NCBI GenBank assembly: GCA_964581795.1 | Contig: CAZOPW010000001.1 | Span: 8,359 to 72,358, forward strand | DNA from: an uncultured Thermoplasmatales archaeon | GTDB lineage: Archaea; Thermoplasmatota; E2; DHVEG-1 | Direction: 5' to 3' | DNA: 64,000 bases | In this document: positions 11,249 to 61,535 of the stretch, one piece after another | Position numbering within the stretch: position 1 is the stretch's first letter | Layout: each line of letters opens with the position of its first letter | Translations under genes and position numbers: made by a program | Notes under the pieces: generated by a model | What the model saw: the letters and a program-made list of their open reading frames with translations, nothing else | What the model was told of the DNA's origin: nothing | Databases searched by the model: none

Positions 11249-11260
11249 GGAGATTAGATT

Positions 11261-14598: not shown

Positions 14599-14617
14599 TA
14601 CTTTTGGTTGAGCTAAA

Positions 14618-18699: not shown

Positions 18700-18775
18700 T
18701 TAGGTTGTTTCTATCAACAATAAAACAAACGGTCTTATTATACCTTTTTTTTAGATAGCAATACAAGTGTTAAGG

Positions 18776-18799
18776 CAAATGCATATGCATATGAATATG
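18776..18799. promoter_or_regulatory. Tandem hexamer array (CAAATG CATATG CATATG AATATG) abutting TATA box of the 18699 archaellin promoter
   Basis: Same 6-bp periodic CANNTG-type repeat family. TATA-like GGTATAATAAG immediately downstream (gene strand). AGGAGGG SD before the ATG. Confidence 0.5.
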
Positions 18800-18858
18800 T
18801 TAAAAATCAAGAAATGAATTTTGTCTTGTTATAAAAAGGGTAAATATAGAGTCAATTG

Positions 18859-19843: not shown

Positions 19844-19932
19844 AAAATATAGAATCAATAAAAAAAGATTTAAAGAAATAAAAAAGTGAAGGGTTCCAAA
19901 AGGATTGGTTTCGGAGTGCCCTTTTTTCAATT

Positions 19933-26481: not shown

Positions 26482-26499
26482 CTTTTCATTCTTTTAAAG

Positions 26500-27015: not shown

Positions 27016-27027
27016 TTTTCTTAATGT

Positions 27028-27705: not shown

Positions 27706-27752
27706 TTATCTTACCATCCTATCCTAATTTAACTTATTACCATATATTATGT

Positions 27753-28367: not shown

Positions 28368-28386
28368 CTTTTTCCCTTCAAATAAA

Positions 28387-29001: not shown

Positions 29002-29026
29002 ACCTTGTTTCCTTCTAATACAATTT

Positions 29027-31096: not shown

Positions 31097-31097
31097 C

Positions 31098-32576
31098 TTA
31101 TTTTTTCTGCTTAAGCCATAATGTGCTTTGGGGAGCTATTTGATGAAGTGGAAGCACTTTATCCACTACCCCTAATTCAATCGCAGCTTTAGGCATACCA
31201 AAGATTATTGAAGTTTTTTCATCCTGAGCTATAGTTCTTCCCCCCTTTGCCTTAATTGTTCCCATTGCTTGTGCACCATCTCTACCCATGCCAGTTAATA
31301 ACACTGCAACAAGATGTTGTTGAAAGACTTCTGCAGCTGTAGAAAACGTTACATCCACAGCAGGTCTCACACCATGAATTTTAGGTTTTTTATTCAATGA
31401 AACATATCGTTTTAGTTTTCCATTATCCATTTCTTCCTCAACAGTCATATGATAATCGCCAGGCGCAATAAGAGCAACACCATTTTTGATTTCATCACCC
31501 TCGCTAGCTTCTTTTACATTAATCTCAGATAAGGTGTTTAATCGTTCTGCAAGAGATTTTGTAAATACCGGGGGCATGTGTTGAACAATCAGAATACCAG
31601 CAGTTATATCTCTAGGAATTTGAGGGATAAGTTTAGTAAGAGTTTGAGGCCCACCAGTAGAGGAACCAATGATTAATACTTTTTTTACAGTAGTCAATGG
31701 TTGAAAATGAGTTTTTCTTACTTCTGCAAATTTTGTCTTCATTTGATGAGCAGTTCTAACTTTTTCAAGTAATAACTCACTCATTGTCTGAATACTCGTA
31801 TGTGGTGCCGGTTTTGGAATAAAATCTATTGCCCCAGCATCTAATGCGTCTTTAATAGCAGCCATATTATGCTCAGCTTCGCCACTTATTACTATGACTG
31901 GGAGTGTTCGCTCTTGCAATAATTTTTGTGTAGCTATTACACCATCAACATTTGGCATATTAATATCCATTAACACAACATCAGGATGAATTTCTTGTAA
32001 TTTTTGTAATGCTTCACCACCATCAAGAGCAGTTCCAATAATATTCATATCATGTTGTGAACTAATGATTTCTGAAATCTTTTTCAAAAAAAAGGGCGAA
32101 TCGTCGACCAAAAAAACGTTAATTAATGATTTTGTTGCACTTGCCATCTTCGTTCTTGAATATGTTTCAAAGTTAACATTTGCATGAGCAGATGTTTTTA
32201 CTTTTTCAATTAATTCAGAGCCTATTTCCTTCATATTTAACGATATTGAACCAGATGGTTTACAAATAAAATCAATTGCTCCAGCGTGTAACGATTCAAT
32301 TGTAATCCTTGCTCCTTGAGATGTCAATGCACTTACCATAACTATTGGTTTTGGATTATGTTTCATGATGTGCCTAACAGCATCAATACCATTCATTTCT
32401 GGCATTTCAACATCCATCGTAATGACATCTGGATTGAATTTTTCTGTTTTTTTGATAGCATCAACGCCGTTTTTTGCTGTGCCAATCACTGATATTTGAG
32501 GATCTTGTTTAAGAATATCACTAATCACTTTTCGCATAAATGCAGAATCATCGACAACAAGAACGTTTAGGCTCAC
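31098..32576 (-). CDS. cheB: Chemotaxis methylesterase CheB with two tandem N-terminal receiver domains (REC-REC-CheB_methylest, 492 aa)
   Basis: REC1 VLVVDDSAFMRK...ITMDVEMP...FICKP. REC2 VFLVDDSPFFLKK...VLMDINMP...FIPKP. Methylesterase domain with GSSTGGPQ and HMPPVFT. Confidence 0.85.
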   Translation of the reverse strand: MSLNVLVVDDSAFMRKVISDILKQDPQISVIGTAKNGVDAIKKTEKFNPDVITMDVEMPEMNGIDAVRHIMKHNPKPIVMVSALTSQGARITIESLHAGAIDFICKPSGSISLNMKEIGSELIEKVKTSAHANVNFETYSRTKMASATKSLINVFLVDDSPFFLKKISEIISSQHDMNIIGTALDGGEALQKLQEIHPDVVLMDINMPNVDGVIATQKLLQERTLPVIVISGEAEHNMAAIKDALDAGAIDFIPKPAPHTSIQTMSELLLEKVRTAHQMKTKFAEVRKTHFQPLTTVKKVLIIGSSTGGPQTLTKLIPQIPRDITAGILIVQHMPPVFTKSLAERLNTLSEINVKEASEGDEIKNGVALIAPGDYHMTVEEEMDNGKLKRYVSLNKKPKIHGVRPAVDVTFSTAAEVFQQHLVAVLLTGMGRDGAQAMGTIKAKGGRTIAQDEKTSIIFGMPKAAIELGVVDKVLPLHQIAPQSTLWLKQKK

Positions 32577-32603
32577 AACGTATCCCTCTAAGAACAGAGG
32601 AAG

Positions 32604-33014
32604 TTATCCCATTATTTTTCCAACTTCTTCCAAAACCTGGGGAGCCTGAAATGGTTTTACAATATATCCCTTGGCACCTGCTTCAATTGCTTCCTTAACT
32701 TTTGTCTCTTGTCCTACAGCAGTCACCATGATTATGTTTGCATTCCCATCTTCTGCAACTATATTTTTTACTGCTTCTATTCCTTCCATATTCGGCATTA
32801 CTATATCCATAGTGACAAGGTCTGGTTTATGTTTCTTGTATGCCTCAATTGCTTCCAGTCCATCGGATGCTTCAGCAACAATTTCAAATCCCTTAGGTTT
32901 AAGGATATTTGCTAGCATCATCCGCATGAATTTTGTATCATCTACTAACATCACTTTTTTTCCCATACGACCCTCCTCACCGCAAAAGGTGGTGTCGTTT
33001 ATCAATTTTTCCAT
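32604..33014 (-). CDS. cheY: Chemotaxis response regulator CheY
   Basis: VMLVDDTKFMR...VTMDIVMP...YIVKP. Real start possibly the internal Met (MGKKVML, ~32966). Confidence 0.9.
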   Translation of the reverse strand: MEKLINDTTFCGEEGRMGKKVMLVDDTKFMRMMLANILKPKGFEIVAEASDGLEAIEAYKKHKPDLVTMDIVMPNMEGIEAVKNIVAEDGNANIIMVTAVGQETKVKEAIEAGAKGYIVKPFQAPQVLEEVGKIMG

Positions 33015-33054
33015 ATTTTTTATTTTATTCTTTTGAATTTAGTTTTTTTATATT

Positions 33055-34005
33055 TTACTTAAGATTCTTTTTCATTTGTTCAACAATGTGTTTTGTTCCC
33101 TTTTCTGTTAGTTCATATTCCTGATCACCAGAAACACGAAGTACCTCTTTTGATAAGAGATCATCAACAATACTCTGTAATTCCTCCTCAGAAATCCCTA
33201 GCATCTCTGTTGCCATAGATGCATCAATATCACTAGTATACATCATTTGAACAAGCATGAACTGTTGTTCATTTAATTCAATCGTTTCTGATTCCTTTGC
33301 TTTACTTTCAGAGATGAGTTGAACGTATGAACCCATAAAGGAAATTAATGGACGTTTGCCAGTAATCAAAGTTGAAATAATCGTTCCTTCTTTTTGATAT
33401 TTAAGTGTTAAAGAGGAATCTTGTTTATCTTGTAAATTAATTTCAAAATCATCCAAATTTAGTAAATCGATTGTTTCTTTTTGTTTCTTGCCTAACCATT
33501 CTGCAGCAAGTATAACATTATTTTTTTTAATGAACACATTTCCTTCAACAGGTTTTTTATCTAAAAGGATTTTTCCACCTTTACTAAATGGACTTACGAA
33601 CTCTATTGTTTTTCCATTTGTTAAAAGAATGCATAAAAATTTTTTAATTTTCTTTGCATTCTCATGCGAGGTTGATAATAAACAGGCTTTTTCCTCATTA
33701 TCATCTGAGATATAATGGACTGGTATAATTGTCGTTGAACCTAGAGCTTTTCGCCAGAGTTCAACTTTCCTATCCACATCAGTAATTTTATCATATGGCA
33801 AAATCTTAATATTTTCTTCATCTGGTTTATTATCTTTCTCTGGAGCCAATAGTATTTTTTTCGTTGTTAATGTTAAAAAACCTGGAGTAAGCCTTTTCTC
33901 ATTATTTTTATCCTTTAAATTTGAGAGTTTGTAAATGAATTTTAAATATGAATTTTGGATCAATGCTTTTTCTTCAGCCATCCTACCGTAACCTTTCTTT
34001 TCCAA
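33055..34005 (-). CDS. Putative CheF-like archaeal chemotaxis adaptor (first gene of che operon)
   Basis: Position (cheF-cheY-cheB-cheA-cheC-cheD-cheR is the canonical archaeal order). ~316 aa. No bacterial-type che domain. C-terminal wHTH-like segment. Confidence 0.45.
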   Translation of the reverse strand: MEKKGYGRMAEEKALIQNSYLKFIYKLSNLKDKNNEKRLTPGFLTLTTKKILLAPEKDNKPDEENIKILPYDKITDVDRKVELWRKALGSTTIIPVHYISDDNEEKACLLSTSHENAKKIKKFLCILLTNGKTIEFVSPFSKGGKILLDKKPVEGNVFIKKNNVILAAEWLGKKQKETIDLLNLDDFEINLQDKQDSSLTLKYQKEGTIISTLITGKRPLISFMGSYVQLISESKAKESETIELNEQQFMLVQMMYTSDIDASMATEMLGISEEELQSIVDDLLSKEVLRVSGDQEYELTEKGTKHIVEQMKKNLK

Positions 34006-35151: not shown

Positions 35152-37641
35152 GTGAATTGGAAGATGGGATGGAAAGGAAAAAAATTCCAAGACATGAGTA
35201 TAAAATGGAAGCTGTTGATTATATGCGTACTTTTGGTAAGCGTACCCGTTGCTGCTGCTGGAACTATTAGTTACCAAACATCAGAACGAGAAACATTCCA
35301 ACAAATTGAGGATCAACTTACCGAACAAGCACTTGCATGGAAAACAATTGTCCAAGGGCAATCAGATGTTTTAGATAGGGAAGATGAACTCATAAGAGAT
35401 GAATGTATCGCAATTTCTCGTGATGTAAAAAAGATGATTGAACTCATTGTTCAGCAACATGGAACTTCACCAAGTGACTCTGTAGTGAACAATCTCTTTG
35501 ATAAAATAGCTGAAATTACTGTAGGGAAAACCGGTTATGTCTATCTAATTAGTTGTGTAGACGATAATCCACTTGAGACAATACTCAATGATGGAAATGA
35601 CTATAACAAAGGATATTACGTTGTATCTAAAGGACGCGCTCGAGATGGAGATAATATTTGGAGCGCGCAAGATAACGATGGTGTATATTTTATTCAAAAT
35701 ATGGTCAATCAAGCTTTAACTCTTACGGGTGATGAAGCTTTTACTATTGATTATCCCTGGCAGAATGAAGGTGAAACAGAAGCAAGGATGAAACTAGGTG
35801 GAATAACCTATTACGAACCATGGAATATTCTTATTGGTGCTAGTTCATATTATGATGATTTTAAAAGTTCTGACATTCAAGAAGATCTCAAAGATAATAT
35901 CGCAAGTCAAGTAATCGGAAAAACCGGATATATTTTTGTTCTCGACGGTAGTGGTGATGAGCAAGGTAATTATATTGTTTCAAAAAGTCGTGAAAGAGAT
36001 GGGGAAAATATTTGGGACGCAACAGATGCAGATGGCGAGTACTTTATTCAACAAATTGTTACAAATGCAAAGAAAGTGAGTGAAGGAGATGCTCATATAC
36101 AATACTATCCTTGGCAAAACGAGGGTGAATCCTCCTCGAGATTAAAACTAGCCGCATGTACCTATGTACCAGAATGGGATTGGGTAATTGGTGTGAGTGC
36201 ATATCAAGAAGATTTTTTGGATGGTTTAAAAACGATTCAAATGACAACAATAAGCATTGTAGTGATCTCAATAATTCTAGGTAGTATAGTTGCCTACTTC
36301 TTTGCGATGGCGTTAACTAAACCAATAAATAAAGTTGTTGGAGTCGTTAAATCAAATGATCTCTCCCAAAGATGCAATATTTCCTCCAAAGATGAAATTG
36401 GTACCATAGGTGGTGCCGTAGATGGGATGTTAAATAATCTAGCAGTACCCGTTAAAGAGATGGCAGATAAAGCCAATAAAATAGCAAAAGGAGATCTTAC
36501 TGTTGATTTAAATGTTAAAGCCGAAGGGGATGTTGGAAGACTCGTTGATGGTTTTAAGCAAATGATAACTAATTTACAGTCTGTCATTGGAGAAATAAAA
36601 AATACATCAACAACTACTGCATCTACTGCTGAAGAACTTAGTAGCAGTGCTGAAGAAGTAAATGCTAGTATGGAAGAAGTTTCAAGTACAATTCAACAAG
36701 TAGCTGAAGGGAGTCAAAACACGGCAAAAGATAGTGAAAACATGATTAATCAAGCAAAGCAAGCAAGTGAAAACAGTGAACAAGGTCAGGAAGCCGCCAA
36801 AGAAGTTTCTCAGAAAATGCAACTTATTAAAACAACAACGCAAGAAGGGGCAGAAAAAATCGGTTCACTTGGGGAGAAAAGCAAGGAAATCGGCAATATC
36901 GTTGATACGATTAATCAAATCAGTGAACAAACGAATTTACTTGCATTAAACGCTGCAATAGAAGCAGCTCGTGCTGGAGAAGCAGGAAGAGGTTTCGCTG
37001 TCGTTGCGGATGAAGTTCGAAAACTCGCAGAGGAAAGCGGTCAAGCAACTCAAAAAATTAGTTCTTTAATCAAAGGCATACAAACCGAGATTGACAGTGC
37101 TGTCTCTAGTATGAACGAGAATTCAAAGCAAGTCGAAGAAGGTGGTCGAGACGTTGAAAAAGCAATGCAGGCATTCCAAACATTGCCTGAAGTCATTAAA
37201 GCAGTTAATCAAAGTGCTGAAGAAGTGGGAAGTGTAGCCCAAGAGAATGCTAGTGGAGCAGAAGAGGTCAGTGCTAGTATTGAAGAAGTGACAAGCAGTA
37301 TGCAACAGGTAACAAGTTCAAGTCAACAAATGGCAGATATAGCAACACGACTTCAGGAAATTGTTAGTAGCTTCAAAATCGATGAATCAGCTTTAGGATC
37401 TAACCAGTTTGATCATTCGGAAGCAAACAATGATAAGTCAGCTGATTATGGTTCAAATAATCAATTTGAACCTTCATCTTTTTCCTCTCAAGAACCTGCC
37501 ACAACACAAAATAAACAGACGGATGTTAAAGAATTATCAATAGGCAATAAAGCAAAAAAATTCTTTTCCAAAACAAGAAGTAGAAACAATCAATCTCAAC
37601 AAAAAGAAATCTCAGAGGAAGATACAACTAATATCCAATAA
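35152..37641 (+). CDS. Methyl-accepting chemotaxis protein with large repeated extracellular sensor domain, HAMP and MCP signalling domain
   Basis: N-terminal TM. Internally repeated periplasmic module ([21 protein letters not shown] / [21 protein letters not shown]; YPWQNEG twice). Second TM. Signalling-domain core [34 protein letters not shown]. Confidence 0.9.
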
Positions 37642-38835: not shown

Positions 38836-39690
38836 TTAATCATTATATGGAATATCTAATGAGAATATAGTTTGTCCTTCAGTACTTTCCACTGATAAAT
38901 TTGCATTATATTTTTCACTTATATCATGAATTATCTGTAATCCTTTTCCATGATGAGCCCCTTTAGTTGAAACTGTTTTCTTTGATTGAATTTTTTTAAG
39001 AATTGAGGAGGATATCTTTTTACCCGTGTTTACAATTTCAATATGAACAAACTCTTTCTTATAAATAAATAAAATGGAAATAATCCCATTTTTACTATCT
39101 AGTTCCTGAATAGCTTCAATTGCATTGGACAGTAAATTATAAAGTAATAATTGAATTTCATAACCACAAACTAATAATTTGCGGGAAGATCCCTTTTTAT
39201 CAAAATGAATGCGTATTGATTCACGTTGATTTTTTTCACCAATGAGGTCCCCATACAATGTTTGTGGATAGCGTTTCAATAATTCTGTAATTGTTGAATC
39301 CAAAACATCCTCTAAATAGAACTTTTCTTCGTATTGTGGGTCCGAAATGATATTTTCAATTCGATCAATATTTTCATAAATCCCGTTCAACATTTCTTGT
39401 AATTCTGCTTTTTTTTCTTCTTCTATTGGCATGTAATCTATATTTTTTTCGATTAGATTGACATCAACTTTAATATGTTTAATATTGTGTTTTGGGTCTT
39501 CTGATTGATCAAAACTTTCAAACTCCTGAATTGTTTTTTCAACAACATCAGCTAAATCTTTTTGTTGCTGATACATAAAATATGTCCACATTAAATTTAG
39601 GCCGCCAATAGAACTATGACCATGTGCACGAATATACCATTGGATTTTTTCCTGAATATTTCCGGTTAGAAGAGGATTATTCATTGTCAC
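38836..39690 (-). CDS. GHKL/HATPase_c-domain protein (soluble histidine-kinase-like), translationally coupled to the CheV-like gene
   Basis: C-terminal ATPase motifs (LLYNLLSNAIEA; GKGLQIIHDI). No TM segments. 4-bp overlap with upstream gene (39687..39690). Confidence 0.6.
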   Translation of the reverse strand: MTMNNPLLTGNIQEKIQWYIRAHGHSSIGGLNLMWTYFMYQQQKDLADVVEKTIQEFESFDQSEDPKHNIKHIKVDVNLIEKNIDYMPIEEEKKAELQEMLNGIYENIDRIENIISDPQYEEKFYLEDVLDSTITELLKRYPQTLYGDLIGEKNQRESIRIHFDKKGSSRKLLVCGYEIQLLLYNLLSNAIEAIQELDSKNGIISILFIYKKEFVHIEIVNTGKKISSSILKKIQSKKTVSTKGAHHGKGLQIIHDISEKYNANLSVESTEGQTIFSLDIPYND

Positions 39691-40685
39691 TCCACTTTTT
39701 TATGTTTTTCCAATACGTTTTCAACTATATTGAGTAGATTTCCAATTTCAGGTTTGCTAATCTGTGCATCTGCACCTAGTAAATCTCCTTTTCTACGTAT
39801 TTCTTCATAAATTAATGAAGAAAAAAGAATAACTGGTAACTGGTTCATAGTTGCATCTTCTTTTATCTTTCGAAGAAGTGAATGCCCATCCATTTGCGGC
39901 ATCTCGATATCGGTAACAACCAGTTGAATATATTCTGTTATTGGACAATTTGAATTAGAAGATTTTCGTTTCCAGTTCGCAATACATTCCCAAGCAAGTT
40001 TTCCGTTATCTACAGAGACCACATCAAATCCGCCATCTTCTAAAATCCCTTTAAGCAAATCTCTAACGATGCTCGAATCCTCTGCGAGTAATACTTTTGG
40101 TGGAGGATTACCTCCATCCAACTGATCAATTATGTGTTTATCAGATTTAATGCTTAAGCTAACTTCCGGATTGATATCAGCAACGATCTTTTCAAAATCG
40201 ACCATCAACATTAGTTTCTTCTCATCTTTCCCAAGGGCTACAATTCCAGTAATACAATTTTTTCTAATATCATGTTGAACTTGGGCAGGGGGAAGAACTT
40301 TTTCCCAACTCATTCGATGAATAGTTTCTATTCGATGAACCAAAAACCCAAAATTATCCTGATTGAATTCCGCAACGATAACATATGTGTTATTATACTC
40401 CTCTACTTCACTCTCGTTCAACCATCCACCTAAATCGATAAGAGGAATTATTTTATCTCGGAGTTTAAAAACCCCTAATACATTCTTATGAGATGTAGGA
40501 ATGCCCATGTATTCTGGAGTTTTAATAATCTCTCTAATTTTAGCAACGTTTATGCCAAAGGATTGATACCGTTCACAATTTTTTAAATAGATACCAAATT
40601 CCGCTATTTCTACTTCATTCGTACCAGTTTCAAGTAATATTTCTTGACGATCAGTTTTATTTTCCATCCCAACCATTTTAATCAT
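39687..40685 (-). CDS. cheV: CheV-like protein (CheW domain + C-terminal receiver domain)
   Basis: N-terminal CheW-like domain (EFGIYLKNCERYQSFGINVAKIREII...KLRDKIIPLIDLGGWL). C-terminal REC (VLLAEDSSIVRD...VVTDIEMPQMDG...QISKP). Confidence 0.7.
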   Translation of the reverse strand: MIKMVGMENKTDRQEILLETGTNEVEIAEFGIYLKNCERYQSFGINVAKIREIIKTPEYMGIPTSHKNVLGVFKLRDKIIPLIDLGGWLNESEVEEYNNTYVIVAEFNQDNFGFLVHRIETIHRMSWEKVLPPAQVQHDIRKNCITGIVALGKDEKKLMLMVDFEKIVADINPEVSLSIKSDKHIIDQLDGGNPPPKVLLAEDSSIVRDLLKGILEDGGFDVVSVDNGKLAWECIANWKRKSSNSNCPITEYIQLVVTDIEMPQMDGHSLLRKIKEDATMNQLPVILFSSLIYEEIRRKGDLLGADAQISKPEIGNLLNIVENVLEKHKKVE

Positions 40686-47474: not shown

Positions 47475-48029
47475 TTATTCCCATCTTTTGAATAAGTTAT
47501 GAGAAATTGAAAGTTGATCAAGAATTTTTCCAACAATAAAATCAACAAGATCAGAAAGCGTTTCTGGCTCATGATAAAAACCCGGTGCTGCAGGCAAGAC
47601 AATACCGCCAGCATGATATACCTGAGTCATATTATGAAGGCCTGCCAAATCAAATGGCGTTTCTCGCGGAACGACAATTAGTGTTTTTTTTTCTTTCAAA
47701 ATACAACTAGCACTTCGAGAGATCAGTCGATTCGCATATCCATTTGAAATAGCTGCCAGTGTTTTCATACTACAGGGAACAATGACCATTGCATCTATTG
47801 GAAATGATCCGCTAGCAGGACCAGCAAATAAATCATTATTTTCATAAACGTGATCTGCTAAACTCTCAACCTTTTCAACGGTCGTATTAGTTTCATAGGC
47901 TATAATTTGTTTTGCAGTTGATGATAAAATTAGATGAGAGGTGAAATCATGCTTTTTTAATTCTTGTAGCAAACGAATTCCATAAATGCTTCCAGATGCC
48001 CCGGTTATTCCTACAAGAATGTCTTTCAT
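47475..48029 (-). CDS. ubiX: UbiX-family flavin prenyltransferase
   Basis: ILVGITGASGSIYGIRLL flavoprotein motif; ~185 aa. Confidence 0.75.
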   Translation of the reverse strand: MKDILVGITGASGSIYGIRLLQELKKHDFTSHLILSSTAKQIIAYETNTTVEKVESLADHVYENNDLFAGPASGSFPIDAMVIVPCSMKTLAAISNGYANRLISRSASCILKEKKTLIVVPRETPFDLAGLHNMTQVYHAGGIVLPAAPGFYHEPETLSDLVDFIVGKILDQLSISHNLFKRWE

Positions 48030-48045
48030 AGTTTGATCAAATCCT

Positions 48046-48792
48046 TTATTTTAAGCTATGAATCATAGCTCCAATTTTTTCTTTTACATCTCGTTCTTTT
48101 TCCAAGGCAGTACCTGTTACTATGATATCTGCTCCAGCTATGACTTTTTGTTTCACCGTCTTTACAGAGCGTATACCTCCTCCAACACACAAGGGGATAG
48201 TTATATTTTTCTTTACTGCAGCTATCATCTCATCACTAACTGCTTGAGGAGCACCAGATCCTGCTTCTAAATAGAAAAAATCCATGCCTAAATATTCTGC
48301 AGAAAGCGCATAACCAACAGCTGTTTCAATATCGTTTCTTTTTACAAGGTCTACTTCACCTTTTTTCCCAGCAGTCATTCCCGGTTCAACAATAAGATAC
48401 CCCATTGATATGGGTTCAATACCTGTATGTTTTATGAATGGTGCACCTTTAACATGTTCGCGGATAACATAGCCTAAATTTCTAGAATTAAGCAAACTCA
48501 TGAAAAAAACCGCATCAGCATATTGACTCAAGAATTTCGCTGCTGATGGAAAAAGGATAACGGGTAATGATGATCTTTTTTTAATCATTTTAACGGTGTC
48601 ATCTACTTGTTTTTGGGAGATCAGTGTTGATCCTCCTACCATAATTGCAGTACTTCCTGCTTCTTCAGCTTCAGCGGCAAGCATTCCTGCTTCAGAAGGA
48701 GATTGTTTATCTGGATCAATAAGTGAGAAATGTAAAGGGCCCTCTTGAACTTGAGTTCTAATTTTTTCTGAAAGCTTCATACCAGTAGACAA
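48046..48792 (-). CDS. Geranylgeranylglyceryl phosphate synthase (GGGP synthase, PcrB family)
   Basis: ~248 aa TIM-barrel family with GGGIRS-type motif (CVGGGIRS); archaeal lipid context with GG reductase nearby. Confidence 0.75.
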   Translation of the reverse strand: MSTGMKLSEKIRTQVQEGPLHFSLIDPDKQSPSEAGMLAAEAEEAGSTAIMVGGSTLISQKQVDDTVKMIKKRSSLPVILFPSAAKFLSQYADAVFFMSLLNSRNLGYVIREHVKGAPFIKHTGIEPISMGYLIVEPGMTAGKKGEVDLVKRNDIETAVGYALSAEYLGMDFFYLEAGSGAPQAVSDEMIAAVKKNITIPLCVGGGIRSVKTVKQKVIAGADIIVTGTALEKERDVKEKIGAMIHSLK

Positions 48793-49492: not shown

Positions 49493-50368
49493 TTATTTTC
49501 TATTTTTTATTAATTGATTAATCAATTCTAAGTTGCCAGTTGCAAGAAAACTGACTCGTTCATCCAACGTAAGTGTCATGTCTAAACTATCCCCATGGAG
49601 ATCAGTGACAAAACCCCCAGCTTCTCTAAGAAAGAGTGTTGAAGCAGCAATATCTGTTACTCTCATGTAATCACGACCAACAATATATGCATCCAATGCA
49701 CCCGTTCCCACAAGACACATTTCCAATGATGCAGCACCAAGTGATCGAACGATTGAATTTTTCACCATATTTATTGTTTTTTCATCACTTCGTTTTCCTA
49801 AATTAACTGAAAACAAAGGGTCACGAGCAGAAACATCTGGAACAAGAATATGATTTTTATTGCAATACGCTCCTCTTCCCGCTTCAGCCTCATAAATATC
49901 TGCTGTAGCTACATTTTTTACAATTCCATATTCAATATCTGAAAGACTATGTCGACCAACCGCCAGGGAAACAGAATAGAACGGGATTCCCCTATAAGCA
50001 TTTCTTGTTCCATCAACAGGATCCAAAATAAACGTATATTCTCCATTATTATCGATAAAACCAACTTCTTCACTCAGTAAATTAACATTTAAATCATTTT
50101 TTTTCAACATTTTAAGAGCGGTTTTTTCCGCTAGTTTATCAATTACTTTCGTTGGAGTGCCATCAGCACCAATGTCCGTCGTTCGACCCATTTTTACAAA
50201 ATTTGCTTTCAGTTCACGACGGATTTTACGATCGATTTTTTTTACCATTTGTTGAGCCAATACCTTCATTGATTCATCCATACAATAAATGGAACAGGTC
50301 TTAATTGAAAAATATTTTTCATAAAAAAAAATTAATTCATGGTATTCATACTTCTTTTTTTCTGCCAT
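49493..50368 (-). CDS. suhB: Inositol monophosphatase / fructose-1,6-bisphosphatase family (IMPase fold)
   Basis: ILDPVDGT and WDxAAG-like (GALDAYIV) motifs. True start probably the internal Met (~50281), which avoids overlap with the neighbouring gene. Confidence 0.75.
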   Translation of the reverse strand: MAEKKKYEYHELIFFYEKYFSIKTCSIYCMDESMKVLAQQMVKKIDRKIRRELKANFVKMGRTTDIGADGTPTKVIDKLAEKTALKMLKKNDLNVNLLSEEVGFIDNNGEYTFILDPVDGTRNAYRGIPFYSVSLAVGRHSLSDIEYGIVKNVATADIYEAEAGRGAYCNKNHILVPDVSARDPLFSVNLGKRSDEKTINMVKNSIVRSLGAASLEMCLVGTGALDAYIVGRDYMRVTDIAASTLFLREAGGFVTDLHGDSLDMTLTLDERVSFLATGNLELINQLIKNRK

Positions 50369-51273
50369 TCGTATAAACTAAAAAAGGTTACGATTAAAAC
50401 ACCTAGACATAATGATAAAATTGTAAAAACTGCATTATCTGGATTATTAATCATCTGTATACCTGGTTTTCTTAGTGCCCCGATCATCAATCCAGTGATG
50501 AATGCAATAGTAACAGATTCATATTTTGAAAATAAATAAGATAAAACCCGGGAAAAACCTAACAAACCAATGAGTCCACCTAATCCATATATTAAGACAT
50601 ATAGTATCATACCAAATTCAAAATGGGTAAGATCACGTAAAACAGATAATAGAAATTCGTATTGACCTAGAACTAGTAAAATAAAAGCCCCAGATAACCC
50701 AGGTAATATCATAGCACAAAATGAAACAATTCCTGAGCCAAAAATCATGACTAAGGAATGATCCAGTTGGATGCTTTCTAAACCAACAATCAAGAATCCA
50801 AAAAGAATGCCTAATGCAACAAAAACTACGGAAGATGAGTTAAATAATTGTTTATGTGTGTAATATACATGGTAAGCTGAAGCAAAAATCAATCCAAAAA
50901 AGAAAGCAAACGTTTGTGTTGGTACGGTTTCTAATAAATAGCCAATAACGTTGGCAAGGGTAAGAAAAGCAAAAAGTATACCTACCATCAGGGGAATTAA
51001 TAATCCAAAATCAATTGAAAAAAATGATTCCTTCGACTTTTTGAAATTGCGTTTATCTTTGAATCCTAAGAAAAAGAAAAGAATAAAATGAATATTTATT
51101 GATTTTAATGCGAATACAAATCGTTCGTAAATACCTGTTATTAACGCAATAGTTCCACCCGATACACCAGGGATAATATCTGCTGATCCCATTCCAAGTC
51201 CTTTCAAAAAAATAAGAAGAGTCTTGGAGATTGATTTCATATTCATTGTTTCATCCGAAGCAACTATCCTCAA
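50332..51273 (-). CDS. DUF368-family polytopic membrane protein
   Basis: IIPGVSGGTIALITG and later ILPGLSGAFILLVLG repeats typical of DUF368. Confidence 0.6.
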   Translation of the reverse strand: MRIVASDETMNMKSISKTLLIFLKGLGMGSADIIPGVSGGTIALITGIYERFVFALKSINIHFILFFFLGFKDKRNFKKSKESFFSIDFGLLIPLMVGILFAFLTLANVIGYLLETVPTQTFAFFFGLIFASAYHVYYTHKQLFNSSSVVFVALGILFGFLIVGLESIQLDHSLVMIFGSGIVSFCAMILPGLSGAFILLVLGQYEFLLSVLRDLTHFEFGMILYVLIYGLGGLIGLLGFSRVLSYLFSKYESVTIAFITGLMIGALRKPGIQMINNPDNAVFTILSLCLGVLIVTFFSLYEWQKKRSMNTMN

Positions 51274-53279: not shown

Positions 53280-56200
53280 TTATTCCTCTCTACTCAAAGC
53301 GATATTGTAGACTTCTGGTGCTTGTCCAACCTCAATTACGAGCTCCTCTGAATACTCATACGTTACCATAGTTCCTGTTTCATTGACTTCTTGATCCACT
53401 TGTACAATGTAGCTTCCTGGCATAAGGTTGACTGAATACTCTCCATCTTGATTTGATTTTGTCTCTATTTTACTAGCCGTATTATTCTCCACATCCGCAT
53501 CCACAGCGAATCCAATCGTTATATTTGATATGGGTTCATTGTTATCAGCACGTAACGTAACACCACTCACCGATATTTTAGCGTAAGTCATACTAATGTT
53601 TGATGTTATTGTCTTATTCTCTTCAATGGTAATAGAAGAAGTTGTTTGATAATCTGGAAGTTTTGTAGCATTCAATTCATAATCTCCAGGTAAGAACGAT
53701 GATGTTTCATATCTGCCCTTTTCATCAGTTGTAATCGTTTCAACAATCTTATCTGTACCAGTAGTAGTATACACAACATCAATGGTTACATCAGACATTT
53801 CTTCACCTGTATCTATTTCATCATTACCGTTTTCATCAAAGTACACTGTTCCTTCTGCGTTTCCTTTTTGTGGTTTTGTAGTATTATGCCAGTTTTGGCC
53901 TCCAGTCAATGGTATTAACGTATTTTCAATTTGAAATCCATCTTTAGTTTGAACAATTATCTGATAATACCCTGGAAGAAGATCTGAAACGTTATAATAC
54001 CCATTTTCATCTGTGGTTAAATCCTTGAGGTAATCCCAATCATACGCTGTTGGTCTGCCTTGATTTGGATCAAGGGCATCCACACCATACACCAAAACTT
54101 CTGCACCTTCCAATGGTTCATCCACTGATGCATTATAGACTTTCTCAGAATCATCGTTATTATCATACACATAACCTTCTAAAGATGCCGGAGGGATCTC
54201 AATGTCAACTTGTTTTCTATAATTATCACTTGTCCGAGTTGCTTCATCTTCAGTAATCGCTGGATACATCCCATCATCACTAAATGTGACATTGGTCATT
54301 ACAAAGGCATTATCGCCCAGCTCGGGATATCGTTGTACTTGTAATAGAACATCACCAGCTGGAACGATAACTTCATAACTACCGTTTACACTAGTATTTG
54401 TATCATGATCAACAGGTATTTGCGTTTGATAATGAGAGATATTTTGTTTAATAACCACATTGAAATCTTTGTTTTCATCTAAAAATGAGATCGTTCCATT
54501 TACTATTGCACCTTCATAATATTTTGCTATGACAACTGCACTTTGCCCCTGATTATATGCATACTGAGGATATGGTGAGATATACTGAGCATAAAAATGC
54601 TTCATATCCTGACATGGGATCTGATATTGAGGAATTGATTTTTTTCCAGATTGATCTGTTTGAACCACTCCAATGTATGTTTTATAAAACATAGTTTCAA
54701 AATAATCATCCTTATAAACCGTTTTTGTATCAGCTATTGGATCTTGTTGATTTTGTACATCGGTTCGATTCATTACCTCTTCAAACGTTAGCTCCTGTCC
54801 ATTCTGGGTGACATAAATCACTCTAGTGAAATCATCTTCAGGACTGTATTCCCCCATACCTGCAACGAGCAGTAAACTTCTATCAGCAAGAAAAGCAAAG
54901 ATATTGAAAATTTGACGATCATAACCTTCAACACCATAATACCGAATGCTTCGCCCGGTTACATCCTGAATATCACGATATAATTGTGTTAATTGCTTAT
55001 CAGATAATCTACTTGTTAATAAATCCATACCATCTTGGTATAAAGCATTTGTCGGCCATTGTTGACCAATTGGATAATCTTCGCTAAATTCTTCCCCATA
55101 TTGAGGAGCAATTGGATCACCATATGATGGTGAGCTCCTTGGATTTTCAATCCAAGAAACGAAATCATCAGTGTCATTTTCATCTAAATAATTATTCAAC
55201 GTATTAATAAGCGAAGAACTAAGGGCTGCATTTTGGGCTTCACCTTCAAGTAATCGAATAATCCACACAGATACGGCCTCTTGTTCTGTTTTTGATGTGT
55301 GAAAGTTTGCTGCTGGAGGTATTCCGTCCTGAAAGTTATCTGCAACAACAGGATGGCCACCAACTGCAACACCATAAAAACCATAATCCCACCAAGATAT
55401 ATATGCAGGTCGATCTGCAGGATTTTCTATTTCAGTGTCTTGTTGAGCAAACCATTCATATGCATGAACCCAGTATTGCTCTTTTCCAAAACTTGATCCA
55501 AAAGCTCCATTTGGTAAATCGCCGAACACATCTTCTTTTTCAGTCGCTGGAACCGCTGCATCCAATGCAAGGTAAGCATTAGGAAGAATTAAAAGAAACG
55601 CGATAAATAATATACCAAAAACATGTAGAAACGAAATACCCTTTCTAACACCTTGTAATCCACCGACTCGTTTTATACTTTTGATCATTGATGTGTAATT
55701 AATTTTTTCAATTATTAGCCAAATAAACCAAGAACTTAATAGTACAATTGGAGGGATCAGGTCATTAATAAAACGACCTGCGACACCTATGAACCAAATT
55801 TGAATGATGAAGATGAGTAAAAGGAAAAAGTGATCACGACGATGATTCTTTGATAGATAGCGATATCCCAGCATAAAAAACCCAATCCAGGCAATCCAGA
55901 ATAATGCAGGGCCAAAAGACATTACTGTTCTACTGATATCATATGTTCCTGCCTCAGCAATAGTCATCGACACTTTGTTTCCATAAATTCCAGATCCAAA
56001 TAATATATTTGAAAATTTAGTTAACCCGCTAAAAGCAGGTACAATTTCAACAATAGCAGGAAGGAAAAAAAGGAATAATACGCCGCCTGCTCCTAGAATG
56101 AAAATAGTAGGTAAAGACAAGGTCCAAGGTATATTTTTCTTTGTGAATAAATAGTAAATTGCTCCAAAAGCTAACACAATGAGAGTTAAATACAGATTTA

Positions 56201-57134
56201 TTCCGGGTGAAAAACCTCCACGCGACGCTATGACAGGTAGTGAAACAAGATAGCCTGTAAGTAATGTAATGCTAGCTGTGCGAGGGACAGTAAAATCTTT
56301 CTTACCTAAAAACAAATCAATAATCATTTGCACAATTGCATATAATGCTATAATGGTAAAGAGATATTCAGCTTCCACCCATAACATAGTCAATGCAGCT
56401 ACCGGAAGTCCTGCAAGTAACGCATAAAGGCTTGATTTTTTCATATCTAGTGTTGTTATTCCTTTTAGTAGGAAGAAATATGATGTAATAATTAAAAACA
56501 TGTTCAATGAATCATGGTCAAATAATGCATATGCAGATCCATGTCCAGATCCTAAGTGAACCGGGATTAATGTAAGAAATAATGCTGCAAGAAGTCCAAC
56601 TTTGCGACTAAACAAGGTTTTTCCAATAAAATAAATAGGAAAAACAAGCAATGCACCAAATAATGCGGGTAAAAATTGCATTGCAAATCCCACCGCATCT
56701 ACTTCATCCATGAAAGGAGTCAGTAGTTGGCCGAATCCGATAGATAATATATTCATAAATGGACCTCGGCCTCCAGATTGTCCTAATGGATAATTTAATA
56801 GAGGATCATCTGCAGTATAATATGGATAATACCCAGGATTATCTCCATATAATGTATCCTCAACATGTCTCATATTATAATAAGGATCAGGGCCAGCTAA
56901 GTAGTATTTATCAAAACCAACGCCATCTTCATTGAATGGTGCACCACTTGATACATTGAAGTATGAGTTGAGCATGAGAACCATAAGGAAAATTGCAATT
57001 AAGGATCCAGCAACCCACCATTTCTTTTTGATTTTAAATGGCATATTTTTCTTCATTTTGAAATTAAGTGTCTTATCTACTTGTTTTTCAACAGTTTCAG
57101 CTGGTGTATTTTTTCTCTGGGCACGTTTTCGCAT
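53280..57134 (-). CDS. aglB: Oligosaccharyltransferase AglB/STT3 with ~650-aa C-terminal extension of Cna-B/CarboxypepD_reg-like repeats (1284 aa)
   Basis: 13-TM-type N-terminal half followed by the WWDYG motif (YISWWDYGFYG). C-terminal repeats of the pattern G.V.D....P.EGAEV.V......TDENGYY.....LPG.Y.I. Confidence 0.8.
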   Translation of the reverse strand: MRKRAQRKNTPAETVEKQVDKTLNFKMKKNMPFKIKKKWWVAGSLIAIFLMVLMLNSYFNVSSGAPFNEDGVGFDKYYLAGPDPYYNMRHVEDTLYGDNPGYYPYYTADDPLLNYPLGQSGGRGPFMNILSIGFGQLLTPFMDEVDAVGFAMQFLPALFGALLVFPIYFIGKTLFSRKVGLLAALFLTLIPVHLGSGHGSAYALFDHDSLNMFLIITSYFFLLKGITTLDMKKSSLYALLAGLPVAALTMLWVEAEYLFTIIALYAIVQMIIDLFLGKKDFTVPRTASITLLTGYLVSLPVIASRGGFSPGINLYLTLIVLAFGAIYYLFTKKNIPWTLSLPTIFILGAGGVLFLFFLPAIVEIVPAFSGLTKFSNILFGSGIYGNKVSMTIAEAGTYDISRTVMSFGPALFWIAWIGFFMLGYRYLSKNHRRDHFFLLLIFIIQIWFIGVAGRFINDLIPPIVLLSSWFIWLIIEKINYTSMIKSIKRVGGLQGVRKGISFLHVFGILFIAFLLILPNAYLALDAAVPATEKEDVFGDLPNGAFGSSFGKEQYWVHAYEWFAQQDTEIENPADRPAYISWWDYGFYGVAVGGHPVVADNFQDGIPPAANFHTSKTEQEAVSVWIIRLLEGEAQNAALSSSLINTLNNYLDENDTDDFVSWIENPRSSPSYGDPIAPQYGEEFSEDYPIGQQWPTNALYQDGMDLLTSRLSDKQLTQLYRDIQDVTGRSIRYYGVEGYDRQIFNIFAFLADRSLLLVAGMGEYSPEDDFTRVIYVTQNGQELTFEEVMNRTDVQNQQDPIADTKTVYKDDYFETMFYKTYIGVVQTDQSGKKSIPQYQIPCQDMKHFYAQYISPYPQYAYNQGQSAVVIAKYYEGAIVNGTISFLDENKDFNVVIKQNISHYQTQIPVDHDTNTSVNGSYEVIVPAGDVLLQVQRYPELGDNAFVMTNVTFSDDGMYPAITEDEATRTSDNYRKQVDIEIPPASLEGYVYDNNDDSEKVYNASVDEPLEGAEVLVYGVDALDPNQGRPTAYDWDYLKDLTTDENGYYNVSDLLPGYYQIIVQTKDGFQIENTLIPLTGGQNWHNTTKPQKGNAEGTVYFDENGNDEIDTGEEMSDVTIDVVYTTTGTDKIVETITTDEKGRYETSSFLPGDYELNATKLPDYQTTSSITIEENKTITSNISMTYAKISVSGVTLRADNNEPISNITIGFAVDADVENNTASKIETKSNQDGEYSVNLMPGSYIVQVDQEVNETGTMVTYEYSEELVIEVGQAPEVYNIALSREE

Positions 57135-58156: not shown

Positions 58157-60334
58157 ATGAGGATGCTACGTAATATCACCAGTTTAATTCTTTTGTTTTT
58201 AGGTTTAATCATCATTTTAATTGGGTCAGTGAATGCATCTTCTGATTCCGCTGTAGATAGCGATATTAACATTGAAGTAAAAGAGGGAGCATCATTTTCA
58301 ATTGAATTCTTGGCTGATGTTCAGTATATTACGCTCCCAGCTAACGAAATCCGTTATTCCCAAAAGGACATTGAGCAAGCAAGCCCGGAGATGCTTGGCG
58401 CAATAAAATATGCATTAAAAAGTGATATCGTTTCACAAATCCGTTCATCTTTTCCAAATTGCATTATTGCTTCGATTAACGAATTACCAAAATATAATTC
58501 AGGAGTGTTTCTTGATGAATATACTGTAAGTTTAACTGCTGATTTTTTTTCAATTAATGAATCTTTTTTTTCATCTGATTTAATTAATGGTTTATTAGAT
58601 TCAGGTGTCTTTGTAAATTTATCCTTTTCCTGGACCTCATTACCTGGTTGGAATAACACATATTCCCTAATTCTATCAAATGATCTTGGATTTAAACGTA
58701 CAGATGGGACTGTGAAAAGTGGAAAAATAAGTTGGGATATATTCAATGTGGGAGATGAACAAGAGGTAGAAATAGGTACAATTACATTAAAAGATAATAA
58801 TCCCACAACAAGTGCAAACCAAAATGAAAGCTTATCTTTTCTTTTTTCTTTAGATTGCCGTCAAACTCATAAGGTGAATATGTCATTATATCTTAAAGCA
58901 GAAAGACTTAATATGAGAAAATATGAGTTTTTACCTTCAATTTTAACTTTGCCCTCCTCACTCCCTGCAGATGGTGTTCGATTGTGTGTCGAAAGAAATC
59001 TAACAACACTTGAGGAAATTAAAAAAGAATCATTTTCAAAATATATTGAAGAATTGAAAGATTCTCTAAAGACTTCTACGTTTAATCAATCATTTGATAC
59101 TAAGTTTTTATGGGATGAAAAAACAACCACAAATTGTTCTCAGCCTTATTTGATTGACAATATGGATGAGGCTCCTCCTATCACAGGGACAATTATTGAC
59201 CCTTCTGTTTATCTAAGTTTTCATAATATATCTGGAAAAGCATTTTTTGGGCTTATTAATGCTGGTGGAATTTCTGAAATATCTCATAAAGATGTTAATT
59301 TTGCAGATGTTTTTGATAATTTTCAACATCCTGCGTCATCCAAACTTTATCTACCCACTTCTGTTGTCTTAAATGAATCAGAGATTGTTGAATGGATTCA
59401 GTCAAGCGAATTTAAGGGAGTGTTTTCATCTCAACAACCTATGACCTATGACTCTCAGAAAATCACAAGATCGTATGATATTAATGTGAAAAGTACTGAT
59501 TTGAATTTATTAAGTTTTTTTACTGGAAAAACAGAAGTGAATTTAGGGATTGGGTTTGAAAAAACAAGAAATATTTTTGTGATGAAACGATCTTCAGCAT
59601 TGTCAATTCCTGAAGATATACAATTATCATATGTCAATGCTGATGCTTTTCGCGTATGTACAAAAGAAGAAGTATTTACAGAAGAGGAAATTAATAAGTA
59701 CGTTAATCTTCATGAAATTGAATTGGAAAATTTTTCAAGGCGATTATTTCCATCCATAAAGGGTTCTGCGGTTAATGATGAAACAACGTTAGAGGATTCA
59801 TTAGAATGGGATGGAAATATTACTAATATGAATGCGGACCAGCCGGTTATATTCGCTCAAATAATGGAAAGTACTGCTCCCCTTAGTTGTCAATTTTCGT
59901 TTTTCCCCCCTCATTTTTCATTTACTAATCAGAATCTAACCTTCGTTGGTATCCCCGAGGAAACGGTAACATATAATATGACTTTTCCAAAAGGAATAAG
60001 TGTTAATGTGCTTTCGTCATCTCAACCTGTGGTTGAACAGAGGGTTAATAATGGTCAATCATTGCTTAGTATTACCTTAAATGCTTCTAAAACTGGAAAA
60101 GTGGTCTATGTTGTTCTTTCCATGGAACCTACAATTGTTTACATCATTGGATTATTTGTTCCTTGTATCATTAGTGTTTTTATCACTATTCTTTTGTTTT
60201 TCGTTGTTTATATTATTCGAAAGAAAAGAAATAAATATCGGCAGCAAGGACAAAGACCCCCATCGTCTCACCAAGATGAAGGATATGAAAATGAGGAATA
60301 TTATGTTCCTCCTAAACCGCCCTCTTCGCGTTAA
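58157..60334 (+). CDS. Type-I membrane cell-surface protein, sequon-rich, C-terminal TM anchor and Tyr/Pro-rich cytoplasmic tail
   Basis: Signal peptide; many NxS/T; C-terminal TM (IVYIIGLFVPCIISVFITILLFFVVYII) + RKKRNKYRQQ. Confidence 0.55.
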   Translation: MRMLRNITSLILLFLGLIIILIGSVNASSDSAVDSDINIEVKEGASFSIEFLADVQYITLPANEIRYSQKDIEQASPEMLGAIKYALKSDIVSQIRSSFPNCIIASINELPKYNSGVFLDEYTVSLTADFFSINESFFSSDLINGLLDSGVFVNLSFSWTSLPGWNNTYSLILSNDLGFKRTDGTVKSGKISWDIFNVGDEQEVEIGTITLKDNNPTTSANQNESLSFLFSLDCRQTHKVNMSLYLKAERLNMRKYEFLPSILTLPSSLPADGVRLCVERNLTTLEEIKKESFSKYIEELKDSLKTSTFNQSFDTKFLWDEKTTTNCSQPYLIDNMDEAPPITGTIIDPSVYLSFHNISGKAFFGLINAGGISEISHKDVNFADVFDNFQHPASSKLYLPTSVVLNESEIVEWIQSSEFKGVFSSQQPMTYDSQKITRSYDINVKSTDLNLLSFFTGKTEVNLGIGFEKTRNIFVMKRSSALSIPEDIQLSYVNADAFRVCTKEEVFTEEEINKYVNLHEIELENFSRRLFPSIKGSAVNDETTLEDSLEWDGNITNMNADQPVIFAQIMESTAPLSCQFSFFPPHFSFTNQNLTFVGIPEETVTYNMTFPKGISVNVLSSSQPVVEQRVNNGQSLLSITLNASKTGKVVYVVLSMEPTIVYIIGLFVPCIISVFITILLFFVVYIIRKKRNKYRQQGQRPPSSHQDEGYENEEYYVPPKPPSSR

Positions 60335-60335: not shown

Positions 60336-61535
60336 TTATTTTTTAAGATGAAGAAGACCAGGCAATAATTTAATTAAGGAAGGAGTATGTTTTACCATCG
60401 GTCTTATTAATTTTGAGGGGTAATCTATATCTCCATGTTCATTTATAGTATTGAGTAAATGGGTTTCATTAAACTTAGCAATATATTTTTCAAACTGTTG
60501 ATCTGAAAGCCCGGCAAATAGCCCATGAAGTTTCATACCGATACTCAATTCTCTTCCTATTGTTTTTTTCCATTGGGTATGATATTTTGAAAGAAGTTGT
60601 TTAGTATATGTTTGGGTTTGTACAGCAGTGTTTATCGTTTGTGCTGCAATTTGTGCGCTGGTAAGACCTGTGAATATGCCCCCTCCTGAGGTAGGTTTGA
60701 CTTGTGCTGCAGCATCTCCAACAAGTAGAACTCTATCATCAACAGTTCGTTTTAATGCGCCCAACGGAATAATTCCTGCCATATATTCTTCTATAGCTGC
60801 ATGATCAAGATATGGTTTGGTATGATCATGATGAAGAAATTTATCAAAATATTCTTTTGGTGATTTATCAAAGGGAACACATAAACCAGCGCGTGCAGTG
60901 GTTCCCTTTTTATTTGTTGGAATAATCCATGCAAAAAATTCAGGGGCAATAGAGTTGCCAACAAAGATTTCAACTGCAGATGGATTAAGATTTGTATCTT
61001 TTAAGGATGCTCCTATTCCCTTTAAAAACTTTTGGGGGGAAGGAAAACAAAAGATATCTCGAACCACCGACTGGGGGCCATCTGCTCCTATAAGCATCAT
61101 ACTATGAATGTTTCTTTTTTTATTGGTATACGTTTCAATGTATGAATCGACTTGTTGAATTGATTGAACTTTCTCATTAGTGATTATTTTAGCTCCATAC
61201 TGTTCTGCATTGTCAGCTAAGGTCTGATCAAATTCGGTTCGATCAATGCTATAAGCATGGATTTTATTTCCACCGATAGTTAAAATATTATTTTTTGGTG
61301 AGTGTATGTTAGCAGTGCTTATACTATTTTGAATTATTTTTTGTGATGAAATATTAAATCTTTCGAACACTCGCGGAGTGATTAACCCTGCACATTGAAT
61401 TGGTTTCCCAATTGTTTTATGTTGTTCGATTACAGTTACACTTATTTCCTTTTTTGCAAGCAATTCTGCTAAATATAATCCACTTGGGCCTCCGCCGACA
61501 ATGGTTACATTAGTTTTTTCACACATAGTTTGCAT
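60336..61535 (-). CDS. Geranylgeranyl reductase family FAD-dependent oxidoreductase (digeranylgeranylglycerophospholipid reductase-like)
   Basis: FAD-binding VTIVGGGPSGLYLAELLAKK N-terminus; ~400 aa. Confidence 0.8.
   Translation of the reverse strand: MQTMCEKTNVTIVGGGPSGLYLAELLAKKEISVTVIEQHKTIGKPIQCAGLITPRVFERFNISSQKIIQNSISTANIHSPKNNILTIGGNKIHAYSIDRTEFDQTLADNAEQYGAKIITNEKVQSIQQVDSYIETYTNKKRNIHSMMLIGADGPQSVVRDIFCFPSPQKFLKGIGASLKDTNLNPSAVEIFVGNSIAPEFFAWIIPTNKKGTTARAGLCVPFDKSPKEYFDKFLHHDHTKPYLDHAAIEEYMAGIIPLGALKRTVDDRVLLVGDAAAQVKPTSGGGIFTGLTSAQIAAQTINTAVQTQTYTKQLLSKYHTQWKKTIGRELSIGMKLHGLFAGLSDQQFEKYIAKFNETHLLNTINEHGDIDYPSKLIRPMVKHTPSLIKLLPGLLHLKK

Follow-up and report, generated by a model that had tools for sequence, protein, structure and literature searches.

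AglB, the archaeal STT3-type oligosaccharyltransferase (OST), transfers a dolichol-phosphate-linked glycan to the Asn of N-x-S/T sequons, and to our knowledge it is the one enzyme required by every archaeal N-glycosylation pathway. In its active site, two DXD motifs and the TIXE motif of loop EL5 are joined by WWDYG, which forms the pocket that receives the Ser/Thr at position +2. Here we analyze the AglB gene in a stretch of 64,000 nucleotides (hereafter the window; contig CAZOPW010000001.1, positions 8,359 to 72,358, assembly GCA_964581795.1) from an uncultured Thermoplasmatota archaeon related to MBG-D/Thermoprofundales. The encoded protein has 1284 amino acids (aa), compared to 868 aa for Archaeoglobus fulgidus AglB and 967 aa for Pyrococcus furiosus AglB, and it continues past the catalytic core into four predicted beta-sandwich domains (D1-D4).

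A. fulgidus AglB-L (PDB 3WAJ, 3WAK, 5GMY, 7E9S) shares with the window protein the STT3 fold of 13 transmembrane (TM) segments, the same motifs and the Arg that binds the lipid-linked oligosaccharide (LLO). It carries one peripheral beta-rich unit (P1) past the core, as the window protein probably does with D1, but its chain ends there, whereas the window protein adds D2-D4; identity between the two is only 13-20%. P. furiosus AglB-L (PDB 2ZAG/2ZAI) has a P1 and a P2 unit, which the literature places around the CC core, whereas D2-D4 are consecutive, as in pilin and adhesin stalks. The Gram-positive stalks (SdrD B, Bacillus anthracis TIE, PitA, BcpA, SpaA) have the same tandem beta-sandwich fold (Foldseek E 1e-16 to 1e-9), and the EF-hand-like acidic loop of D3 resembles the Ca2+ sites of SdrD B domains. 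Unlike these sortase-anchored adhesins, the window tail is sequon-loaded, sits on an archaeal enzyme and lacks an invariant Lys/Asn/Glu isopeptide triad. In general, the globular domain of archaeal AglBs consists of CC, IS and beta-rich peripheral P1 (and P2) units; molecular dynamics of P1/IS deletions in A. fulgidus AglB led to the proposal of a stabilizing role, and P. furiosus AglB without the IS unit retained wild-type activity (bioRxiv 10.1101/2020.08.18.256065).

An AglB with invariant catalytic residues

The gene is a complete open reading frame (ORF) at 53280..57134 on the minus strand, with an ATG start and 1284 codons plus stop, and a 100% identical protein is found in public data (P0001). 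A first-pass annotation, made from the sequence alone, had identified it as AglB/STT3, and our analysis agrees. Pfam STT3 (PF02516) matched aa 78-479 (58.8 bits, cutoff 24.5), the family profile aligned to A. fulgidus AglB-L (3waj) across aa 74-619 (E = 3e-26), and hydropathy revealed ~13 hydrophobic segments within aa 41-517. Accordingly, we place the STT3-type membrane domain with its ~13 TM segments at aa 40-539 (55518..57017, minus strand). No C-terminal membrane anchor was detected by hydropathy.

Catalytic residues were identified from the alignment to A. fulgidus AglB-L together with a published motif catalogue (PMC8342417). The first DXD motif is represented by D83 (GPDPYY), which aligns to the Asp of GGNDPWYY in A. 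fulgidus AglB (AfAglB), and the second by D206-H207-D208, aligned to D-H-H. The TIXE motif reads T391-I392-A393-E394 (TIAE in AfAglB), R454 corresponds to the LLO phosphate-binding Arg of AfAglB-L, and WWDYG is located at aa 581-585 (55380..55394, minus strand). All of these are invariant in homologues. As judged from its sequence, the window protein is a single-subunit AglB/STT3 N-oligosaccharyltransferase, and N-oligosaccharyltransferase activity is predicted for it.

The extracellular alpha/beta globular core (CC and IS units) spans aa 540-846 (54597..55517, minus strand). The CC-unit fold is present, and an AglB_core-like Pfam match at aa 550-621 was weak (23.2 bits, under the 27-bit cutoff). 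In two positions the family differs from A. fulgidus AglB-L. The DGGK position reads D603-G604-I605-P606 (DGIP); its first three residues are invariant and the fourth nearly so, with no Lys. At the DK position, a conserved helix carries the invariant pattern D739-x-x-I742-x-x-x-F746, which mixes the DK and MI types and is a candidate for the DK/MI motif of the Ser/Thr pocket. Membership in TIGR04154 (archaeo_STT3, archaeosortase A-associated) was rejected, as the score of 187.6 bits against a cutoff of 450 indicates a related protein and not a member.

The basic N terminus, delimited by homologue alignment (aa 1-39; 57018..57134, minus strand), opens with MRKRAQRK and would lie on the cytoplasmic side according to the positive-inside rule. 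This presumably cytoplasmic opening motif (aa 1-8; window 57111-57134, minus strand) hardly changes among homologues with identities as low as about 50%, in contrast to the ~30 residues after it, which vary freely.

The C-terminal tail is modeled as a series of beta-sandwich domains

The first-pass annotation had described a protein continuing ~650 aa beyond the catalytic region. Indeed, 699 aa follow WWDYG, but part of this segment is the ordinary CC/IS/P1 globular domain: ~260 aa belong to the AglB core and ~130 aa to a P1-like unit, and ~300 aa are added. We modeled aa 540-1284 with AlphaFold2 (input alignment of 63 sequences), the structure prediction of the C terminus that the annotation had suggested. 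The model (pLDDT 91.5, pTM 0.76) consists of the core, followed by four beta-sandwich domains. The annotated CarboxypepD_reg/CnaB-like repeats are thus real, with four domains in the model where "at least two repeats" had been noted; both sequence strings that had been quoted for them are present in the same ORF, in D2 (aa ~1009-1065) and D3 (aa ~1110-1157).

D1 (aa 847-980; 54195..54596, minus strand), delimited from the model, contains the conserved sequon N879 and shows the highest conservation among the tail domains. In the family profile, the P1 segment of AfAglB-L (GAVVTGKV...NGTYTV) aligns weakly with the start of D1, and for this reason D1 is probably the equivalent of the archaeal P1 unit; 267 residues align to 3waj. 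The truly extra piece would therefore be D2-D4, or ~300 aa instead of ~650 aa. D2 (aa 981-1088; 53871..54194, minus strand) is a transthyretin/CarboxypepD_reg-like beta-sandwich according to Pfam, AlphaFold2 and Foldseek, and D3 (aa 1089-1186; 53577..53870, minus strand) is SdrD_B-like by Pfam and AlphaFold2. The terminal beta-sandwich D4 (aa 1187-1284; 53283..53576, minus strand), defined by alignment and AlphaFold2, carries a conserved VENNTA sequon; this type of repeat is present in 1 to about 4 copies per homologue.

CarboxypepD_reg (PF13620) matched three stretches, the best being 1109-1183 (68.3 bits, cutoff 32.3), and the fold also matches. SdrD_B was detected at aa 1096-1195 (53.6 bits, cutoff 29.7) and a SpaA/prealbumin-like family best at 1108-1179 (34.3 bits, cutoff 23.1). 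Foldseek retrieved the transthyretin-like domain of carboxypeptidase D, CnaB domains, SdrD and pilin stalks (E down to 1e-16) for the tail, the fold of which also matches the SlaB stalk. D2-D4 are only 18-23% identical to D1; all four domains have in common the signature G...G.Y...P.G.Y.

Within D3, an EF-hand-like loop of 12 residues, DENGNDEIDTGE (aa 1100-1111; 53802..53837, minus strand), was recognized by its sequence pattern, D1100-x-N-x-N-x-x-(Y/I)-D-x-x-E1111. Of 63 homologues, 57-63 retain the residues at loop positions 1, 3, 5, 9 and 12, and we infer a putative Ca2+ site. The SpaA and SdrD_B models together with the fold match also made isopeptide-bonded domains of the CnaB type a candidate, which we rejected: since no Lys in aa 981-1284 is invariant across 17 homologues, such bonds are unlikely in D2-D4.

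The tail is the part of the protein with the lowest conservation. Mean pairwise identity amounts to 0.61 in the TM region, 0.60 in the core, 0.53-0.54 in D1, 0.41-0.43 in D2, 0.46 in D3 and 0.41 in D4. Most invariant residues in D2-D4 are Gly, Pro or Tyr; the remainder comprises the EF-hand-like loop residues, one sequon and a few others. Repeat number varies as well: one D4-type repeat is added in homologues of ~1390 aa and three in a homologue of 1600 aa. On a neighbor-joining tree of 62 sequences, built from the TM region, core and D1, the extra-repeat state switched at least 7 times. D2-D4 themselves were kept in every member seen, down to 39% identity.

The extended architecture is common to the lineage

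A search of 5.8 billion protein clusters yielded 568 relatives at E <= 1e-5. The best 120 of the 568, independent clusters from NCBI, ENA, JGI and Logan, are 48-100% identical to the window protein, 1256-1600 aa long and cover ~100% of the query, save a few truncated fragments. All full-length members among them combine STT3 with CarboxypepD_reg, and the named ones are "Thermoplasmatota archaeon" metagenome-assembled genomes (MAGs). Further, scanning one genome per GTDB species revealed a relative in 175 genomes. From these, 80 loci were retrieved; nearly all encode the whole 1284-aa architecture at 39-78% identity, and a few are cut by contig ends. The 80 genomes all belong to uncultured Thermoplasmatota, some of them under older Euryarchaeota/Methanobacteriota labels. 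Their sources include sediments, Guaymas, Zodletone and Great Salt Lake, among other sites of this kind. One of the genomes, SM1-50, has been published as a Thermoprofundales/MBG-D MAG (PMC6461988).

For a comparison of lengths, an exhaustive HMMER search of 1.84 billion representatives provided 111 N-terminally complete homologues with WWDYG. The segment after WWDYG was shorter than 350 residues in 15 homologues, 350-500 in 14, 500-850 in 20 (the class of the window AglB with its 699), 850-1200 in 8 and longer than 1200 in 54. The protein had been annotated as unusually long, which holds only against the characterized AglBs. Within its own lineage the tail is the rule, kept in all of the best 120 clusters and all 80 retrieved genomes, and commonness throughout the lineage is what the annotation itself had named as refuting its claim.

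The longest homologues reach 2000-2767 aa in total. Three of these giants were scanned (P0162, P0173 and P0187; 2165-2702 aa, uncultured Thermoplasmata/"Euryarchaeota" MAGs, 29-34% identity to the window AglB). Like the window protein, they consist of STT3 and AglB core followed by CarboxypepD_reg/SdrD_B arrays, but their many repeats make arrays 4-6 times longer, which in two of the three end in a CARDB domain. The one giant-AglB locus examined (L081, 2642-9139) differs from the window in its genomic context. In a nearer sister group, with lengths of ~1010-1110 aa, the match to the query stops at ~aa 995 and so extends through D1. Pfam found no CarboxypepD_reg in two scanned members of this group, while a third (P0143) has one precomputed match. 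The tails of relatives range up to ~2000 aa in length, and at the other extreme no CarboxypepD_reg repeats were detected. We conclude that the window AglB is lineage-typical, with a P1-type periphery extended into a short tandem rod. No prior description of an AglB/STT3 plus CarboxypepD_reg architecture, or of the larger arrays, was found in the literature searched.

AglB is sequon-rich and probably one of its own substrates

Sequon numbers were compared to composition-preserving shuffles. The window AglB has 18 sequons (8.0 expected, z = 3.7), 14 of which are located at aa 879 or beyond. An excess is seen in 62 of 62 AglB homologues (mean of 20 observed, 7.6 expected), and Asn residues of the ectodomain are better conserved within sequons than elsewhere (0.73 vs. 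0.37, Mann-Whitney P = 6e-4). At N879, N1179 and N1217, 55-60 of 63 sequences retain the sequon. In Haloferax volcanii, the long AglB of another archaeal lineage is itself N-glycosylated (PMC8241124), matching the conserved sequons found here. Self-glycosylation is therefore a reasonable inference, and the window AglB is probably one of its own substrates.

The excess extends to other proteins of the window, as the first-pass annotation had noticed for secreted proteins and archaellins. It amounts to 28 sequons in a 507-aa protein (10.5 expected, z = 6.4), 42 in a 900-aa protein (16.9 expected, z = 6.8), 17 in a 725-aa protein (8.8 expected, z = 3.3) and 9 in each of two identical archaellins (2.5 expected, z ~4.8). 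The 507-aa and 900-aa proteins are among three sequon-rich secreted proteins at the window start (185-5640), the other being a 352-aa ORF (185-1243) with 12 sequons (z = 3.7). The 900-aa protein contains Laminin_G_3 and DUF2341 domains. The 352- and 507-aa proteins had no match to a Pfam family, and the 507- and 900-aa proteins none to an NCBIfam family. The sequon excess in secreted proteins of the window lends indirect support to the predicted glycan transfer by AglB to N-x-S/T.

Possible functions of the tail

Typical marks of spacers and stalks in surface proteins are a weakly constrained sequence, a copy number that changes easily, metal sites that confer stiffness, and dense glycosylation. 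Since D2-D4 combine low constraint and labile repeat number with a loop resembling a metal site and dense sequons, we prefer to regard them as an extracellular, self-glycosylated and probably Ca2+-stiffened spacer outside the catalytic machinery, and assign this a probability of roughly 55%. Past the core, the chain would continue outside the cell with the P1-like beta-sandwich D1 and then with D2-D4 as a modular, N-glycosylated and probably Ca2+-stiffened rod. The rod would project from the catalytic head into the cell envelope by roughly 10 nm, an estimate from typical domain size only. It may stabilize or position AglB in the envelope and would take no part in the chemistry.

Some observations weigh against this. 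The retention of D2-D4 argues for a selected function stronger than that of a dispensable spacer, the pTM of 0.76 suggests a defined arrangement of the modeled domains, and the terminal CARDB domain in giant relatives hints at a binding role of the tip in at least some lineages.

The first-pass annotation had suggested that the extended C terminus might tether the enzyme to the S-layer or bind substrate. For both roles, conservation and repeat lability favor a generic spacer instead. As a tether, the stalk would bind an outer-envelope component with its tip and fix AglB under a putative surface layer, so that proteins would be glycosylated at the site of layer assembly. The tail is kept throughout the clade, and an adhesion-type domain, CARDB, terminates two of the three giants scanned, both of which would fit. 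We nevertheless regard a tether as unlikely: no conserved surface patch is evident among the mostly Gly, Pro, Tyr and Ca-loop residues that are invariant in D2-D4 along with one sequon, and D4, the domain at the tip, is the least conserved (0.41 identity) and labile in copy number.

No better placed is a role in substrate handling, in which the array would bind unfolded acceptor proteins or glycan in a lectin- or chaperone-like manner, as a functional analogue of the lumenal noncatalytic subunits of eukaryotic OST. Weak profile matches to the beta-sandwich arrays of NOMO point in this direction. However, conservation of D2-D4 is low, no aromatic or charged cluster is invariant beyond G..G.Y..P.G.Y, repeat number varies freely, and characterized AglBs function without such arrays, which makes this role equally doubtful.

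It appears improbable that the OST membrane domain merely anchors a surface attachment fiber. The fold of the tail is closest to Gram-positive pilin and adhesin stalks, and the giant homologues carry arrays of ~1500-2000 aa with a terminal CARDB, yet the tail in the window measures only ~300-430 aa, has no distinct tip domain and lacks an invariant Lys of the isopeptide type, and the fully conserved catalytic motifs indicate that OST function is primary. Finally, fusion of AglB to a separate downstream surface-protein gene by a frameshift or assembly error has a negligible probability and is excluded for practical purposes, because the continuous ORF recurs at ~100% coverage across the best 120 clusters, the same architecture is found in 80 species genomes, and the AlphaFold2 model is confident over the domain junctions.

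The AglB gene resides in a conserved housekeeping and lipid-gene block

The AglB gene had been described as embedded among sequon-loaded surface proteins. This applies to the adjacent 725-aa protein, but the 507- and 900-aa proteins are encoded at the opposite end of the window, at a distance of ~50 kb, and the flanks do not form a surface-protein neighborhood. Instead, the gene order is geranylgeranyl-reductase family protein, 725-aa membrane protein, PRPP synthase, AglB and AMMECR1, followed by dihydroorotase, DUF368, an IMPase family protein, PcrB/GGGP synthase and a UbiX-like flavoprotein. Among related loci with enough flanking sequence, AglB is accompanied by PRPP synthase in 64 of 65, the 725-aa protein in 54 of 57, geranylgeranyl reductase in 50 of 53, AMMECR1 in 73 of 74, dihydroorotase in 68 of 68, the IMPase family in 64 of 65 and DUF368 in 23 of 66.

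We therefore rejected the placement of the window AglB inside a glycosylation island, as its flanks are a conserved housekeeping and lipid block. A classical agl cluster does surround a 1026-aa sister AglB (locus L082, 7001-10081), which has a single CarboxypepD_reg-like unit and no long tail; this N-glycosylation island comprises GT2 genes, an epimerase, NeuB, CTP_transf_3 (CMP-sugar synthetase) and an aminotransferase.

A homologue of the DUF368/VCA0040-like polyprenyl-phosphate transporters is encoded in the same orientation as AglB and 2 kb downstream of it, at 50332-51273 (minus strand); it matches the Pfam family with E = 1.5e-65 and scores 211 bits in NCBIfam, which falls short of the equivalog cutoff. 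It is plausible that it recycles the dolichol phosphate released by AglB. Isoprenoid-lipid genes flank the block at 47475-48792 and 60336-61535 (minus strand) and are syntenic across the clade; they encode PcrB/GGGP synthase, the UbiX-like flavoprotein and, at 60336-61535, the geranylgeranyl-reductase family protein.

A lineage-confined membrane protein next to AglB

The 725-aa protein (58157..60334, plus strand) is a conserved neighbor within the AglB block. It is a type-I membrane protein, in which a signal peptide precedes an ectodomain of ~630 aa and a single C-terminal TM helix leads to a cytoplasmic tail rich in Pro. Its family comprises 104 clusters, is confined to the AglB clade and is also enriched in sequons (15.8 observed, 8.5 expected). 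Neither a Pfam domain nor a sequence match in the PDB was found for it. Structure comparison of an AlphaFold2 model (pLDDT 86.8) gave scores of about 6.4 for M1-aminopeptidase N-domains and 5.5 for PIG-T.

The predicted ectodomain weakly resembles Ost1/ribophorin I, which we regard as a lead only. Homology to ribophorin I (Ost1) was rejected, as sequence tests were negative, including 0 matches of Pfam Ribophorin_I among 51 family members, and the structural signal is weak. A functional link between AglB and the 725-aa protein based on synteny was likewise not accepted: the whole 12-kb housekeeping block is equally syntenic, and adjacency therefore links no neighbor specifically to AglB.

Other features of the window

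An archaellin cluster with five Arch_flagellin ORFs is located at 16425-21319 (minus strand). The gene of a 237-aa archaellin with 9 sequons is present twice in this cluster, in 100% identical copies of ~750 bp (17270-18020 and 19930-20680), with an integrase-core (rve) ORF (18891-19532) between them. The duplicate could be a recent insertion-sequence-associated duplication, the product of gene conversion or an assembly artefact.

An apparent archaellum accessory/motor operon (7825-16372, plus strand) and a likely chemotaxis cluster (25636-34005, minus strand) were assigned solely from ORF sizes and N termini. Pfam confirmed a dCache-HAMP methyl-accepting chemotaxis protein (35152-37641) and a CheW-receiver fusion (39687-40685). 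With these archaellum and chemotaxis genes, the organism looks motile and chemotactic.

Implications for the family

At the locus itself, the practical value is modest: a confidently identified AglB with a clean domain map, along with predicted glycoproteins in the same window. The family-wide phenomenon is somewhat more interesting than the single locus. Two linked, more far-reaching interpretations can be considered, namely that the array serves as a length-tunable envelope strut and that AglB in this clade works together with the 725-aa protein; taken together, we give them only a slim chance. If the former were true, an oligosaccharyltransferase would be a structural, self-glycosylated component of the cell surface; arrays of this kind have expanded repeatedly in Thermoplasmatota, up to ~2000 aa. 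If the latter were true, a rudimentary multi-subunit OST would exist outside Asgard archaea.

In a sediment lineage that is both large and abundant, the single P1 unit known from AglB has been extended into a conserved tandem array. If such arrays position or anchor the enzyme in the envelope, they would tell us how, and at which site, never-cultured archaea glycosylate their surface proteins.

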